Below are positions 5,220 through 56,578 of a DNA stretch of 64,000 nt, piece after piece. The DNA comes from a virus. The number at the start of each line of letters is the position of its first letter. Within the stretch, counting starts at the first letter, position 1. The stretch lies in UHGV virus genome UHGV-0072281; one strand, given 5' to 3'. The notes under the pieces are model-generated. The model did no database searches and was not told where the DNA came from. It was given only the letters and a program-made list of their open reading frames with translations. A program made the position numbers and the translations under genes.

Positions 5220-5225
5220 AATTAT

Positions 5226-5264
5226 CCCGTTACCCACAAAGGTAACGGGATGTCCTTTTATTTA
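5226..5264 (+). terminator. rho-independent terminator
   Basis: Stem cccgttacc/ggtaacggg with 6-nt loop, followed by a T-rich run. Confidence 0.6.
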
Positions 5265-5383
5265 CTCGTAAACGCGTCTTAGACGCTGTTTTACACCTTA
5301 AGACGATTAATGGTGTTTAAAAAATAAAAGGTCGTCAGAATGCGATACAGCGCGTTTTAGAGGGTGTTTTAATTAAAATATTT

Positions 5384-5424
5384 TCAGATATATATTACTT
5401 AGGTGAGAGAATTACGTAATACTC
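5384..5424 (+). promoter_or_regulatory. conserved phage promoter motif (TCAGATATATATTAC-TTAGGTGAGAG) plus downstream palindrome
   Basis: One of four near-identical copies in the window; lies after a terminator and ~50 nt before an RBS and ATG. Confidence 0.55.
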
Positions 5425-5455
5425 ATTTATCGTATACCTAATTAGGAGCTATATC

Positions 5456-5599
5456 ATGATTTCTGTAAAACACAAAAAAGCTATCTTCGCTGTTGTTATC
5501 GCTGTTGTTCTGGGTTGCCTGTACCTGGATATCGACAAAGGCTACGACACTTGCATCGACAACGGTAATTCCGTTGCGCAGTGCACTGGTCGTGGTTAA
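5456..5599 (+). CDS. small lipoprotein-like membrane peptide (47 aa)
   Basis: AGGAG RBS; hydrophobic N-terminus ending VLGC (lipobox-like); three Cys; codon usage of a highly expressed gene; own promoter and terminator. Below the length cutoff of the ORF track. Confidence 0.5.
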   Translation: MISVKHKKAIFAVVIAVVLGCLYLDIDKGYDTCIDNGNSVAQCTGRG

Positions 5600-5604
5600 T
5601 GTAT

Positions 5605-5635
5605 AAGGCACCTTCGGGTGCCCTTAATTTTTTTA
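5605..5635 (+). terminator. rho-independent terminator
   Basis: aaggcacc-ttcg-ggtgcctt hairpin followed by a T run. Confidence 0.7.
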
Positions 5636-5653
5636 TTAATTGGAGCATAAACG

Positions 5654-6469
5654 ATGATTACTATTAAAGATTATTTTCCGCGTGGGTTGAGCAATGAAAA
5701 CTTCGTTCCAACTGAAGACATTGCCATCGTTGCAGAGTCCAGCGATAAGTCTTTTAAACTCTACTTGAGTACGGCAGCAGGAAAATCCACTCTTATCCTT
5801 CGTGAACCTGAAGTGATAAGCATCTGCTCGTTTGGGGGTGGTGTAGAAGGAACGATTAACTGGTTGAAATCCAGAATGCATCGTTTGCTTATCGTGAATA
5901 CCGATCCTGTGATTCGTTTACAGCAATTGAAATCGTTGAATGAAATTATCGTCGGATTATTGGAACATGAAACGTTTGGTAATGCTGAGATTGCGGAAGC
6001 GATTAAATCTGTAGAACTAATCGAGTGGAGCGATATCGAATACGAACGTGCTGGGTTATTCGCAATGTACGGTGATGATAATCCCGTTGCGTTTGCACAA
6101 ACGTTGGATAATGTTACCGTAACAGCGCGCGTATTGTTTGGTTTACAACGTGTTGAGTTTGAACTGAAACACGTCTACGTGAGCAATAAACCGGAGATGG
6201 TGGAGACATTGATTCGTGCTTTCGCATACCCGTTAGACGGTGAATGGGAACAGCAGATTAATGAAGCGTTAGAAGCCATGCATTTCCTGGCTGAAACGTT
6301 AAGGAAGGATGAGAAATTGAAAGGTCGTGTTTATCCAGAACACGATTTTGTTTGTGAAGAATGTGGAGCACAGTATCAAATCCGTGTTCCTTTAACCGGC
6401 CTAACATTCCCGCAAGCCAACGTGCAATGTAAGGAATGTGGTCATGTTCAATACGTAGCGATTAAATAA
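5654..6469 (+). CDS. hypothetical protein with C-terminal CxxC...CxxC zinc ribbon
   Basis: ATG with GGAG upstream; C-terminal CEECG...CKECG pair. Confidence 0.6.
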   Translation: MITIKDYFPRGLSNENFVPTEDIAIVAESSDKSFKLYLSTAAGKSTLILREPEVISICSFGGGVEGTINWLKSRMHRLLIVNTDPVIRLQQLKSLNEIIVGLLEHETFGNAEIAEAIKSVELIEWSDIEYERAGLFAMYGDDNPVAFAQTLDNVTVTARVLFGLQRVEFELKHVYVSNKPEMVETLIRAFAYPLDGEWEQQINEALEAMHFLAETLRKDEKLKGRVYPEHDFVCEECGAQYQIRVPLTGLTFPQANVQCKECGHVQYVAIK

Positions 6470-6541: not shown

Positions 6542-6697
6542 ATGAGAAATGTTAATGCAATGCTTAACCAGGCATTTGTTAACCAACAGCGTTTTCAGGA
6601 ACGCTTAGCACAACTTAAAACACAACACAGACCACCACAACAAAGAGTGGTTAAGAGCAAGTTCGGCGAAATGGTTTTCGAAAGAAAATCTTTCTAA
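6542..6697 (+). CDS. small basic protein, paralogue A of a tandem triplet (51 aa)
   Basis: AAGGA RBS; shares FxERL and C-terminal F(E/T)ERxS with the next two small ORFs; own terminator. Confidence 0.45.
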   Translation: MRNVNAMLNQAFVNQQRFQERLAQLKTQHRPPQQRVVKSKFGEMVFERKSF

Positions 6698-6847: not shown

Positions 6848-7015
6848 ATGTTCGACAGTATTACACAAATTTTTAACACTACCGTAAACAATCACGCTCA
6901 GCAAGCGAAGTTTAATGAACGATTAAGGGAAGTTCAACAATTAGGATTAAATAAAAGATTAAAATCTTCCAATAATCCTCGAGTACAGATCTTCACCGAA
7001 AGGAGAAGTAACTGA
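6848..7015 (+). CDS. small basic protein, paralogue B (55 aa)
   Basis: AGAGG RBS; QLGxNKRLKxSxN...QIxTExRS shared with paralogue C. Confidence 0.5.
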   Translation: MFDSITQIFNTTVNNHAQQAKFNERLREVQQLGLNKRLKSSNNPRVQIFTERRSN

Positions 7016-7111: not shown

Positions 7112-7285
7112 ATGAACAATGGTTACTACTTTACTGACAAAATGCTTGCAGAACAATATGCAGCAAAAACCAATTTACAGCAACGTATCTACGAGTATAG
7201 TCAACTCGGTGCGAATAAACGATTAAAACCATCAACCAACCGTTTCACACAGATAATCACTGAAAAAAGGAGTGAACGCTACTAA
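7112..7285 (+). CDS. small basic protein, paralogue C (57 aa)
   Basis: AGAGGG RBS; clear protein-level similarity to paralogue B. Confidence 0.5.
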   Translation: MNNGYYFTDKMLAEQYAAKTNLQQRIYEYSQLGANKRLKPSTNRFTQIITEKRSERY

Positions 7286-9533: not shown

Positions 9534-11819
9534 ATGAAAGATACCCGAATCTCTAATTTAGAGAAACTCGTAGAAGCCGGTACTAGTCTGGCCCAAAACG
9601 TCATCGGCAACAACACCGCCAGCGAAATGTGGAAGACGATTGTTGCAGGCGAGTCCGTACGTAGCAACGCAAAAGTATTTGGCGCTCTGCGTGACGAAGC
9701 ATCACAGCACTATGCCAACGCTTTTGGCGGCAAGAAAATGTCTCATGCTGCGACCGTCGCTTCCGCAATGATTCTGGGCGTAGCTAACCACGGTAAAGAC
9801 CTGCAAGAACGTGTTGCCCAGGAATACGCTAAGCCGGAATTCCACACCAAGTATAACCTGGATATTGGTATCCCTGGTGCGCAAGGTGGTGATTGGGGTC
9901 GTGAGCGTATGGTTGTTGCTCAGGAATACTACAGCAACAAAGACTACGACAAAAACTTGGGCCTGACCTGGACCCTGAACGTACGTGCTCTGGAAACTCA
10001 GTCCAAGTTTGCTGAAACACTGTTCCCGACCATTACCGTTGACACCAACGATGTTGGTATTACCGTACGTACTAAAGTGACTACCGTTTCTCGCGGTATC
10101 ATGAACGCGCTGCTGAGCAAAGACGTCGTTGAAGATCATCGTCGTCCGCTGCACAACGCACTGACTGACCACACCGTTCTCCAGGACGAAGCGATCAACA
10201 TCGTTCCTTACGTAATGGAAACCGGTGAAAACCAGGAATACTTCGTAAGCGAAGATCTGGTTCCGAACGAAAAAGTTCGCCTGGGTCGTGTACCTCCGTA
10301 TCCGACTAACTACCTGAGCTTTGCAAACGACACGCTGAACCTGTTCCAGCTGTCTGCGCATCCGGGTATCGTTCAGGAAGGTTACGATGAAACTGATGAA
10401 ATCGCACCGGGTTGTGCTCTGGGCAGCCTGCTGATTTCTGTACGTAAACCGGCCGAAGAAGCGAAAGCGGGTAAATTCATCAAACTGCACGTTCGTGACA
10501 TGCAGTTCGCAACCTTCCAGCGTCCTGCTGAAGGTGACGGCCGTGAACTGGTTCTGCAATTCCGTCGTACCGCGTTCTCTCTGAATGCGAAAACCACTGA
10601 CTGGAAAGGCGACGCTATTCCGGCACTGCAAGCACTGGGCCAGAACTCCTACACCCTGCGCTACGTTATCACCATCACCATGTCCCTGTTCACCAGCGGC
10701 CAGTTCGGTGGTAAAGTAGACATTTCCGGCCACAAACTGGAAATCGAAGGTCTGTACGATGCAACTGGTAACAAAGTTGATACCAAGTCTGGTACCGGCA
10801 AAGTTATCCTGGATGGCCTGAAACTCGAACTGATGGGCTGGCGCTTCGATGGTACTCGTACCAACGAAAACCGTCGTACCCAGGGTCTGCTGCTTGACCC
10901 AATTTGGGAACAGGAAAACTACAAACTGCAATACGGTTCTCCGATTCTGACCAAGTCTCCGGTTGGTGTTGAATACGACGACACTGAACGTCTGGATGAC
11001 CTGATCTCTGCGGTGAACATCCGTAACGAACAGCTGGCTATTACTCAGACGCTGTCTTACACTGAAGCAGTACGTAACGCAGCCGCTGCGATGATCACTC
11101 CGTGGGACAAACCGGCTATCCGTGGTCTGGGCCGTCACTGGGTTGCTCCGTGGTTCAAAGAGTCTGACTACAAAGTCGATGAAGTTGTTCAGTCTCTGGA
11201 TACCAAAGAAGCGCTGATCAACGCTCGTCAGGGTCTGTTGCAGCGTATCGGTAGCCAGGTAACTCAGGCTATCCAGGATTCTCGTTTCATTCCTGCACTG
11301 CGCCTGCTGACCGCTGATCCGGACATTCTTCCGAAAGTTATTATCGCAACTGACGAACCGACTGCATCCATGCTGCTGCTGGTTCAGGGCGACCAACGTC
11401 TGCTGGGCGACCGTTATGAATACGAAGTCGTTACCACCAACGATGACCGCTGGCGTATCTACAACGCAGCTGACGATTCCTGGACTCGTCGTCTGCAATG
11501 GTTCCTGAAAGTTCCGACTGCGGACGATGGTTCCTACTGCGTACTGAACTGGGGTAACCACTTCTGGTCTCCGATCATGGTTACCAACATCAACATTCAG
11601 CGTAACGGTTCTACTTCTAAAGAACTGGCTGTACAGCCGCGTAACGCGCATATCTGCCACTGCCCGATCACTGGTCTGATTTGGGTTAAAGGCATCACCA
11701 AACTGGTTGAAGAAAAACTGGCTTACAACGTTTCTGTAGAACAGAACGGCCAGAAACAAACCGAAGGTGGTGTAGCAGGTAACCTTGCTGTCGAAGGCAA
11801 AGCTACCGCTGGTAAATAA
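9534..11819 (+). CDS. major virion structural protein, candidate major capsid protein (761 aa); tail sheath not excluded
   Basis: Codon usage sharply different from neighbours (CTG, CGT, GGT, ACC, AAA, GAA dominate); strong terminator directly downstream; size is in the range I recall for jumbo-phage capsid proteins (from memory, unverified). Confidence 0.45.
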   Translation: MKDTRISNLEKLVEAGTSLAQNVIGNNTASEMWKTIVAGESVRSNAKVFGALRDEASQHYANAFGGKKMSHAATVASAMILGVANHGKDLQERVAQEYAKPEFHTKYNLDIGIPGAQGGDWGRERMVVAQEYYSNKDYDKNLGLTWTLNVRALETQSKFAETLFPTITVDTNDVGITVRTKVTTVSRGIMNALLSKDVVEDHRRPLHNALTDHTVLQDEAINIVPYVMETGENQEYFVSEDLVPNEKVRLGRVPPYPTNYLSFANDTLNLFQLSAHPGIVQEGYDETDEIAPGCALGSLLISVRKPAEEAKAGKFIKLHVRDMQFATFQRPAEGDGRELVLQFRRTAFSLNAKTTDWKGDAIPALQALGQNSYTLRYVITITMSLFTSGQFGGKVDISGHKLEIEGLYDATGNKVDTKSGTGKVILDGLKLELMGWRFDGTRTNENRRTQGLLLDPIWEQENYKLQYGSPILTKSPVGVEYDDTERLDDLISAVNIRNEQLAITQTLSYTEAVRNAAAAMITPWDKPAIRGLGRHWVAPWFKESDYKVDEVVQSLDTKEALINARQGLLQRIGSQVTQAIQDSRFIPALRLLTADPDILPKVIIATDEPTASMLLLVQGDQRLLGDRYEYEVVTTNDDRWRIYNAADDSWTRRLQWFLKVPTADDGSYCVLNWGNHFWSPIMVTNINIQRNGSTSKELAVQPRNAHICHCPITGLIWVKGITKLVEEKLAYNVSVEQNGQKQTEGGVAGNLAVEGKATAGK

Positions 11820-32260: not shown

Positions 32261-32300
32261 TCAGATATATATTACCTTAGTGAGATTACACAGTAATCTC
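32261..32300 (+). promoter_or_regulatory. conserved phage promoter motif plus 8-bp hairpin (gagattac/gtaatctc)
   Basis: Copy 2 of TCAGATATATATTACC; directly after a terminator; precedes the XRE regulator gene. Confidence 0.55.
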
Positions 32301-32334
32301 TTACGACTTGTTCTACAGATTAGGATTAATTATC

Positions 32335-32694
32335 ATGGCTTACAATCACAACTCTATTGTTTTAGCAAAACGTAAATTCGGTCTTCATCTTTCTTACGTG
32401 ATTCGTCATTTGACAGCGAAAGACATTACACAGCGTGAACTTGCCCAGCTTGCGAAAGTTTCACAACCGGTTATTTCATCTATTAAGAACGAACGCAGCG
32501 AATGCCTGAGTCTCCCAATAATGATGAAGGTTGCTGATGCGATTCGTCTGAAATATCAGATTACGTTTAATTCTGTTAAAGGGAGTTGCTCAGTAACGGT
32601 TCACGTAGAGTCTGCGTTGGACTACGTTGCAAATACGTCCCTTAAACGTACAGCGAAGAATATTCGTTTTGTTACTAACGGCGCAACACACTAA
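32335..32694 (+). CDS. XRE-family helix-turn-helix transcriptional regulator
   Basis: ITQRELAQLAKVSQPVISSIKN is a typical HTH_3 (Cro/CI-type) motif; first gene after the promoter motif. Confidence 0.65.
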   Translation: MAYNHNSIVLAKRKFGLHLSYVIRHLTAKDITQRELAQLAKVSQPVISSIKNERSECLSLPIMMKVADAIRLKYQITFNSVKGSCSVTVHVESALDYVANTSLKRTAKNIRFVTNGATH

Positions 32695-52148: not shown

Positions 52149-52192
52149 TCAGATATATATTACCTAGAGGAGAGTGAAATTTACATTCACTC
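52149..52192 (+). promoter_or_regulatory. conserved phage promoter motif plus hairpin (gagtgaa/ttcactc)
   Basis: Copy 3 of TCAGATATATATTACCTAG; directly after a terminator. Confidence 0.55.
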
Positions 52193-56536: not shown

Positions 56537-56578
56537 TCAGATATATATTACCTAGGTGAGAGTTCAGTTACTCTCACT
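56537..56578 (+). promoter_or_regulatory. conserved phage promoter motif plus hairpin (gtgagagt/actctcac)
   Basis: Copy 4 of TCAGATATATATTACCTAGGTGAGAG. Confidence 0.55.

Follow-up and report, generated by a model that had tools for sequence, protein, structure and literature searches.

T4 Imm and Sp are small, early envelope proteins that guard the infected cell by way of the injection machinery of the incoming phage and not its receptor, and the Hok/Gef proteins, of about 50 amino acids, cross the membrane with an N-terminal helix and expose a cysteine-containing C-terminal tail to the periplasm. Early small lipoproteins with one intramolecular disulfide, Llp and Cor, exclude phages from the periplasmic face of the outer membrane (PMC9586334). 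T5 Llp is, once mature, a 61-residue lipoprotein with one disulfide that acts on FhuA from the periplasmic side; the Cor proteins of T1 and phi80 are similar, and the llp gene lies directly downstream of the receptor-binding protein gene (PMC9586334). Here we analyze a gene for a 47-residue peptide at positions 5456-5599 of a 64,000-nucleotide stretch of viral DNA, UHGV-0072281 (the whole stretch is called the window below), which a preliminary description had read as a highly expressed, lipoprotein-like, stand-alone transcription unit and a possible superinfection-exclusion or receptor-masking factor. We find that this is a real, conserved protein-coding gene of an SPN3US-like jumbo phage and a genuine promoter-to-terminator unit of its own. 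In all likelihood it encodes an abundant, early, envelope-targeted peptide with a disulfide loop; a role in superinfection exclusion specifically is a tentative suggestion, made by analogy.

Results

A conserved gene forming its own transcription unit

The translation of the open reading frame (ORF) at 5456-5599 is MISVKHKKAIFAVVIAVVLGCLYLDIDKGYDTCIDNGNSVAQCTGRG, exactly as first described; for SPN3US infection the expected tryptic peptide is CIDNGNSVAMCTGR. The gene, its signals and the parts of its product are as follows.

5223-5252, both strands: bidirectional hairpin terminator with a 12-bp stem, closing the gene for the 268-residue gp65 homolog (terminator scan)
5382-5409, + strand: phage promoter motif TTTCAGATATATATTACTTAGGTGAGAG (28 nucleotides, AT-rich) with the invariant 15-nucleotide core TCAGATATATATTAC at 5384-5398, recognized from repeated copies in the window and in SPN3US
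5400-5429, + strand: leader stem-loop of 8 bp, 5400-5407 paired with 5422-5429 (folding, -4.9 kcal/mol, z = -1.15)
5444-5448, + strand: Shine-Dalgarno sequence AGGAG, 7 nucleotides before the ATG, read off the sequence directly
5456-5599, + strand: coding sequence of the 47-residue pre-peptide, stop included; ortholog of SPN3US gp66 and member of PHROG 8574
5456-5518, + strand: putative signal/anchor segment, residues 1-21, delimited by pattern rules: n-region with K5, H6, K7 and K8, hydrophobic run A9-L24, and V-V-L-G-C21
5537-5596, + strand: module predicted to face the periplasm, residues 28-47, from the 34-sequence alignment: Y30, C33 (5552-5554), the N36-G37-N38-S39 turn, C43 (5582-5584) and T-G-R-G47
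5607-5637, + strand: intrinsic terminator, a GGCACC-UUCG-GGUGCC stem-loop (5607-5622) followed by a T-rich tract (terminator scan)

By its proteins and its gene order the window belongs with the SPN3US (Seoulvirus)/Machinavirus jumbo phages of Enterobacterales. The 761-residue ORF at 9534-11819 encodes a major capsid protein of the phiKZ type (PF25620, E = 5e-207), and the 268-residue ORF upstream of the peptide gene is 57.5% identical to SPN3US gp65. Gene orders were compared between the window, SPN3US, ChrisDB and four metagenomic relatives; the common arrangement runs from head-tail joining genes through a gp65-like gene and small genes to a DnaB-like helicase gene (on the opposite strand), a 174-residue gene and the capsid gene. 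The peptide has positional orthologs in SPN3US gp66 (SPN3US_0066) and ChrisDB gp82, and it is syntenic in all relatives examined. Megablast of the 3-kb region against deposited phages matched the 40-nucleotide promoter motif alone, and hence no near relative has been deposited.

The family itself is narrow and already catalogued as hypothetical: the peptide matches PHROG 8574, of unknown function, over its full length (E = 3.4e-23, 47/47 profile positions). With tblastn it turned up in 60 records of phages that infect Salmonella, Erwinia, Escherichia and Proteus, and 100% identical copies lie on four IMG/VR contigs of 151-225 kb. A word-indexed search with the peptide alone gave a single, near-identical match; recovery of the family took a profile search, which gave 31 members of 45-51 residues, and HMMER run exhaustively on 1.84 billion representative proteins, which gave only six short clusters. 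Residue counts given below refer to a family alignment of 34 sequences.

Selection acts on the protein. The four nearest relatives (L005-L008) each differ from the window by two or three nucleotides, all of them synonymous third-position changes. Among distant relatives, where synonymous sites are near saturation, the ratio of nonsynonymous to synonymous polymorphism (pN/pS) is 0.25 over the C-terminal 20 codons vs 0.66 in the hydrophobic segment. The gene is thus under purifying selection, and it is kept across the whole SPN3US/Machinavirus clade while its neighbors turn over, with only about 20 residues tightly constrained. This codon-level pattern (substitutions between close relatives that are synonymous only, an amino-acid sequence kept despite saturated synonymous sites, and extreme codon bias) excludes the reading of the locus as a non-coding RNA.

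The view of the ORF as a stand-alone unit was borne out, since it has its own phage motif upstream (5382-5409), its own terminator (5607-5622) and, ahead of these, the hairpin at 5223-5252 that ends the preceding gene and insulates the unit on its 5' side. The UUCG terminator is kept in L005-L008, and a further relative, L011, has an equivalent hairpin. A scan for sigma-70 promoters gave no site upstream of the ORF, which fits a phage with its own RNA polymerases. An obligatory partnership with gp67 was ruled out, as homologs of SPN3US gp67-69 are found nowhere in the window and L011 lacks these genes at the site.

Codon bias and a rare promoter motif suggest abundant early expression

The fraction of optimal codons (Fop, for E. 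coli-type optimal codons) is 0.913 in the peptide gene, which ranks first among the 70 ORFs of the window. Codon usage had been described as matching that of the most highly expressed gene; it in fact exceeds that of the major capsid gene (0.821), every other ORF lying at or below 0.634. The chance of finding at least 42 optimal codons in 46 at the window mean is 8e-9, and the orthologs show the same bias, with Fop of 0.70-0.96 vs local means of 0.49-0.58. Together with the transcription-unit evidence, this makes a stronger case than the preliminary description, made from the sequence alone, could present. The major capsid gene also contains, antisense on the - strand at 9702-11759, a 685-residue ORF; this is most likely no gene but an artefact of the strong codon bias of the capsid gene, which strips stop codons from the opposite strand.

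The promoter motif is rare and precisely placed. Its 15-nucleotide core occurs in four exact copies in the window (5384-5398, 32261-32275, 52149-52163 and 56537-56551), every one on the + strand with an ORF downstream, and the full 28-mer matches twice at up to three mismatches vs 0 expected. In the 240-kb SPN3US genome the 10-nucleotide string TATATATTAC occurs six times vs 0.28 expected (56297, 65416, 94242, 113989, 165690 and 223280), five copies having the full core; all six are on the + strand, 66-93 nucleotides before the ATG of a non-structural gene, and none precedes a structural gene. In the cassette TCAGATATATATTACYTAGGTGAGAG is followed by a 5' stem-loop whose 3' arm differs from unit to unit, and the ATG stands about 67 nucleotides downstream. 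Two promoter-gene pairs, those of the peptide (53% identity) and of a helix-turn-helix (HTH) protein (41%), are kept between SPN3US and the window. A text search of the literature with the motif string TATATTAC returned nothing informative.

In phiKZ-like phages a highly conserved AT-rich motif at about -10 has been assigned to the early promoters of the injected virion RNA polymerase, and in phage 201phi2-1 six such early sites were mapped, all before hypothetical genes (PMC7598289; PMC11512511). The motif described here resembles these promoters, being over-represented, conserved, AT-rich, co-oriented and placed before non-structural ORFs in both the window and SPN3US, and the peptide unit would on this likeness belong to the early virion-RNA-polymerase class. 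The rare cassette probably defines the immediate-early regulon of the clade. From codon bias and promoter class we infer that the peptide is highly expressed and made early, and the word "early" in the preliminary description seems reasonable to us; no transcriptome for the SPN3US-type clade was found in the literature searched.

All ten motif-driven leaders (four in the window, six in SPN3US) carry hairpins of 7-15 bp, with z from -1.15 to -7.6, whose 5' arm starts in the conserved GUGAGAG and whose 3' arms are unit-specific. The leader hairpin of the peptide gene is the weakest of the ten. Such hairpins could stabilize the mRNA or help promoter recognition.

Three further observations concern other units of this kind. 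The HTH gene behind the second promoter copy of the window (32308-32694, + strand) is listed with a TTG start at 32308; its true start is probably 32335, where the alignment of the SPN3US ortholog begins and where an ATG lies 69 nucleotides from the motif, the standard spacing. In SPN3US the motif-driven gene at 165783-166184 encodes a 133-residue protein that starts MTIKKFLQTVVVLAACG, a canonical-looking lipoprotein signal (L-A-A-C); if this protein is a lipoprotein, two of the six putative early units of SPN3US are envelope-targeted. SPN3US also has 13 copies of AATCGACyATT vs 3.2 expected, 12 of them on the + strand (e.g. 65456, 94281, 114031 and 223319) and eight standing 10-15 nucleotides upstream of a Shine-Dalgarno sequence and ATG; the element might enhance translation or mark a site of RNA processing. 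The window has no copy of it, nor of its shorter form AATCGACyAT, and it was discarded as a part of the peptide unit.

The constrained part is a C-terminal module with one cysteine pair

In the alignment C33, G37, S39, C43, T44, G45 and R46 are invariant and Y30, N36, N38 and G47 nearly so, which gives the formula Y-x2-C-x2-NGNS-x3-CTGRG. The mature part had been called Cys-rich, which overstates the case: it holds one conserved C-x9-C pair. AlphaFold2 (AF2), run with the family alignment, returned a model with a mean predicted local distance difference test score of 86, in which a helix spanning residues 4-35 is followed by the NGNS turn and a second helix at 40-44. A C33-C43 disulfide is predicted, which would make the module a stapled helical hairpin atop a membrane helix. 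By the positive-inside rule the N-terminus would be cytoplasmic and the module periplasmic.

Comparison with characterized families yielded no relative. When the AF2 model was compared with the Protein Data Bank (PDB) by Foldseek, nothing scored below E = 4.6; helical hairpins of thionins and toxins stood in the list but were not significant. Profile searches of Pfam, NCBIfam, PADLOC and PDB sequences gave no meaningful match, with MLANA, DUF6672 and CRF-receptor at chance level. A metagenomic protein of 381 residues (P0007) has an N-terminal membrane or pilin-like region and four tandem repeats AY[NDS]xCIG[NS]G[NA][ST]xxQC that resemble the loop of the peptide, DYNKCIDNGNSVAQC (whole-library E = 9e-4, four matched stretches), and it has a weak Pfam thionin match (E = 8.5e-4). 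Either a shared disulfide mini-module or low-complexity convergence would account for this likeness.

The membrane tether differs between close relatives

The signal-like segment of the preliminary description is present, as a Sec-type signal or anchor, and the whole family shares its basic start and hydrophobic run. The window peptide carries K5, K7 and K8 in its n-region, with lysines within the first seven residues as expected of a lipoprotein and a net charge of +3 over the first ten, and this is followed by 16 uncharged hydrophobic residues (A9-L24). All 34 members carry a net charge of +2 to +4 at the N-terminus and have a hydrophobic run of 13-22 residues, at least 16 in 31 of them.

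The lipobox-like VLGC fared less evenly. Uncharged hydrophobic residues A9-G20 precede it, the cysteine at position 21 (codon 5516-5518) falls inside the range of 15-35 proper to lipoproteins, and VVLGC21 satisfies the PROSITE PS51257 pattern and the rules on position and charge that go with it. It does not fit the stricter pattern [LVI][ASTVI][GAS]C, however, because Leu stands at -2 and not at -3, and the same is true of all 17 Cys-bearing relatives. The cysteine is present in 17 of the 34 members and absent from SPN3US (which has Val), from the Asesino type and from pEa_SNUABM_6/11/29; far from being conserved, as it should be in a lipoprotein family, it switches between close relatives. 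The window (LG-C-LYLD) pairs in this way with P0002 (FG-S-LYLS), P0006 (LV-C-LSAD) with P0028 (LT-W-LSLD), and P0019 (AA-C-SYIT) with P0023 (VS-V-SMMT). Such differences at the Cys column between close relatives indicate, from the alignment, that the lipobox Cys was gained or lost at least three times.

The residues around the cysteine change along with it. Cys-bearing members share a [VAT]-L-[AG]-C box: Ala or Gly at -1 is found in 16/17 of them vs 8/17 of the Cys-less members (Fisher p = 0.007, uncorrected for relatedness), Leu at -2 in 11/17, and Phe at -2 in 1/17 vs 10/17. No Cys-bearing member has Asp at +2, which in E. coli signals retention in the inner membrane. We therefore read the family as having two morphs, a probable outer-membrane lipoprotein and a signal-anchored inner-membrane form, both with the same periplasmic module. 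Lipidation of the window peptide is plausible for its lineage, on evidence that we find evenly balanced, and "lipoprotein-like" holds for this lineage only; since the Cys is missing in 17 of 34 members including SPN3US, lipidation cannot be what the function of the family depends on.

The strongest alternative bears on this very point. The peptide could be an uncleaved inner-membrane protein, N-in and C-out, in every lineage, with Cys21 incidental, embedded in the membrane and carrying no lipid; it would then act at the inner membrane or on the periplasmic face of it, for example by blocking DNA entry as T4 Imm does or by modulating a host inner-membrane complex. Half of the family, SPN3US included, keeps helix and module without the Cys; the hydrophobic run extends 3-6 residues beyond the putative cleavage site; AF2 draws a single continuous helix over residues 4-35; and the lipobox fails the stricter pattern. 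On the other side, the Cys-bearing members shift coherently to Leu at -2 and Ala or Gly at -1, which is what selection for recognition by Lgt and LspA would produce, and the hydrophobic run of the window peptide is only 16 residues long. We consider this alternative unlikely, if well worth keeping in sight. It concerns the tether and is compatible with a role in exclusion.

Neighboring genes

Directly 3' of the peptide unit, at 5654-6469 (+ strand), lies a 271-residue ORF that ends in a CxxC...CxxC zinc ribbon, with weak matches to Pfam zinc ribbons and membership of PHROG 10180 (unknown function). Its counterpart by position is SPN3US gp70, where a CxxC...CxxC motif is likewise found at the end. 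Three tandem ORFs of 51, 55 and 57 residues follow on the + strand (6542-6697, 6848-7015 and 7112-7285); they are glutamine-rich, basic and mutually similar, with a hairpin after each, and they resemble SPN3US gp71/gp72 in position and composition, while BLAST finds no similarity.

Discussion

A proposed mode of action

The results can be joined into a chain of events that, taken whole, we put forward as a working model with a somewhat less than even chance of being right throughout. Transcription would start at the rare AT-rich promoter, read by the injected virion RNA polymerase, and would yield an mRNA with a 5' stem-loop, a strong ribosome-binding site and host-optimal codons, ending at the UUCG-loop terminator. 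The basic N-terminus would be kept in the cytoplasm and the hydrophobic helix inserted into the inner membrane via Sec/YidC, with the C-terminal ~20 residues in the periplasm, where the C33-C43 disulfide would staple the helix-NGNS turn-helix hairpin. In this lineage Lgt and LspA would probably process the VVLGC box; in the half of the family that lacks the Cys, the uncleaved helix would keep the module anchored in the inner membrane. The module would then bind a target conserved across these phages or their enterobacterial hosts, most likely for the purpose of shielding the envelope of the infected cell from related phages, in a superinfection exclusion of the Imm/Sp/Llp kind. Exclusion is the classic task of small envelope proteins that phages make early.

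The partner of the module could be a conserved enterobacterial envelope component or the conserved injection machinery of the phages themselves. The module is invariant across Salmonella, Erwinia, Escherichia and Proteus phages, which argues for a conserved target rather than the masking of a variable surface receptor, and receptor masking, one of the two roles first suggested, is the less likely form of exclusion. The receptor of SPN3US is the flagellum.

Several points weigh against this model. Profile searches found no homology to Llp, Cor, Imm, Sp or any defense or exclusion family; gp66 is not mentioned in the SPN3US literature searched; and the peptide gene is not adjacent to tail-fiber or receptor-binding genes. 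The lipobox is non-canonical, with Leu at -2, and missing in half of the family, so that it is not essential to the shared function, and the AF2 helix runs continuously through the putative cleavage site, AF2 being a method that does not model processing. The early timing rests on likening promoter motifs across different genera, and other envelope functions fit the same anatomy equally well.

One such function would be that of a host-takeover membrane peptide with a Hok/Gef-like architecture, which soon after infection would disturb an envelope process or the membrane potential instead of excluding other phages. Such a role suits the size of the peptide, its single N-terminal helix and periplasmic Cys tail, the very high expression signals and the early promoter class, and early jumbo-phage genes have been described as a source of cytotoxic activities (PMC5312081). 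No match to Hok/Gef or another toxin was found in Pfam at E <= 1, however, and a phage whose cycle is long and energy-demanding would pay a high price for early depolarization. Constraint is moreover strongest on the periplasmic loop and not on the helix, as the pN/pS values above show, which points to a specific binding partner rather than to bulk membrane damage. Such a toxin-like role therefore appears improbable.

A second possibility is a role at the early phage infection (EPI) vesicle, whose membrane the peptide would help to build or would modify, or some other part peculiar to the nucleus-forming cycle; the peptide would be inserted into this vesicle, which encloses the injected genome. 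The lineage is a nucleus-forming one (it has a phiKZ-type capsid protein and is a relative of SPN3US, which forms a nucleus), and the gene is among the very few units behind a putative virion-RNA-polymerase promoter. The vesicles are formed from the inner membrane, and phage proteins made early are known to associate with them, such as phiKZ gp241, which is sensed by JukA (PMC13282480; PMC13434031). The family is confined to the SPN3US/Machinavirus clade, as the six HMMER clusters show, and is absent from phiKZ, Goslar and other phages with EPI vesicles, and both the disulfide-dependent module and the lipobox point to the periplasm; we give this explanation little credence.

A lysis factor (holin, antiholin, spanin-like protein or regulator of lysis timing) can be set aside as scarcely credible, for although the product is a small membrane protein with a periplasmic Cys tail, and some relatives have a lipobox as o-spanins do, the endolysin of SPN3US lies ~70 kb away (135425-136042), no partner i-spanin or embedded gene is present, the flanking genes are not conserved lysis genes, the promoter class appears early and not late, and the peptide is too short for an o-spanin and not proline-rich as o-spanins are.

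Taken to its furthest, the model of an early envelope-targeted peptide would make this peptide the first of a class, specific to Chimalliviridae, of immediate-early envelope "immunity" peptides: a disulfide-stapled 20-residue hairpin, made at capsid-like levels, that would bind a conserved component of the ejection apparatus of the incoming phage or a conserved host envelope machine, and whose anchor would have switched repeatedly in evolution between an outer-membrane lipid and an inner-membrane helix. In a radical variant, this immunity-type peptide would act on the membrane of the early infection vesicle. We regard so bold a reading, variant included, as doubtful. Should the peptide prove an ordinary exclusion factor, the result would be modest, yet the first for this phage family.

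The locus offers several openings. In SPN3US the peptide gene is one of about six units behind a putative virion-polymerase promoter, and the genetic tools that exist for this phage make the gene family tractable. The split between members with and without a lipobox is a natural experiment on the importance of the membrane tether, and the cassette of promoter, 5' hairpin and terminator may serve as a compact expression module.

Comparison with known systems

The closest counterpart, SPN3US gp66 (AEP83899.1 / YP_009153360.1), is likewise 47 residues long, is 53% identical to the window peptide, lies in the same neighborhood with the promoter motif ~70 nucleotides upstream, and has the C-terminal module; it differs in having Val where the window peptide has the lipobox-like Cys21. 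The window gene is monocistronic with its own terminator, whereas downstream of SPN3US gp66 come gp67-gp68, joined by overlapping start and stop codons; neither has a homolog in the window.

Hok/Gef proteins differ in that no Pfam match to them is seen at E <= 1 and in that selection in the window family, which is phage-specific, bears on the periplasmic loop.

Llp and Cor are small, phage-encoded and early, bear an N-terminal lipoprotein signal, work from the periplasmic side and have a single disulfide; the window peptide, small as well, would resemble them in its putative early expression, lipoprotein signal, periplasmic placement and disulfide. Llp and Cor show no detectable similarity to it in sequence or fold (Pfam, PHROG, NCBIfam, PDB-sequence and Foldseek searches), mature Llp has 61 residues vs the 27 that a processed window peptide would have, and half of the window family lacks the lipobox Cys. 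The genomic settings differ as well: llp adjoins a receptor-binding gene, whereas the window gene stands between head-tail joining and helicase/capsid genes, its neighbors in the window and in all relatives being head-tail joining, gp65-like, zinc-ribbon, DnaB-like helicase and capsid genes and not receptor-binding or tail-tip genes. The peptide family is thus not a member of the Llp/Cor family, but it may work analogously.

The likeness to T4 Imm and Sp is a functional analogy only, these proteins being about twice as long and without the C-x9-C module, with no Pfam or PHROG relationship found. An Imm/Sp-type target would account for a module that stays invariant although the phages infect different hosts.

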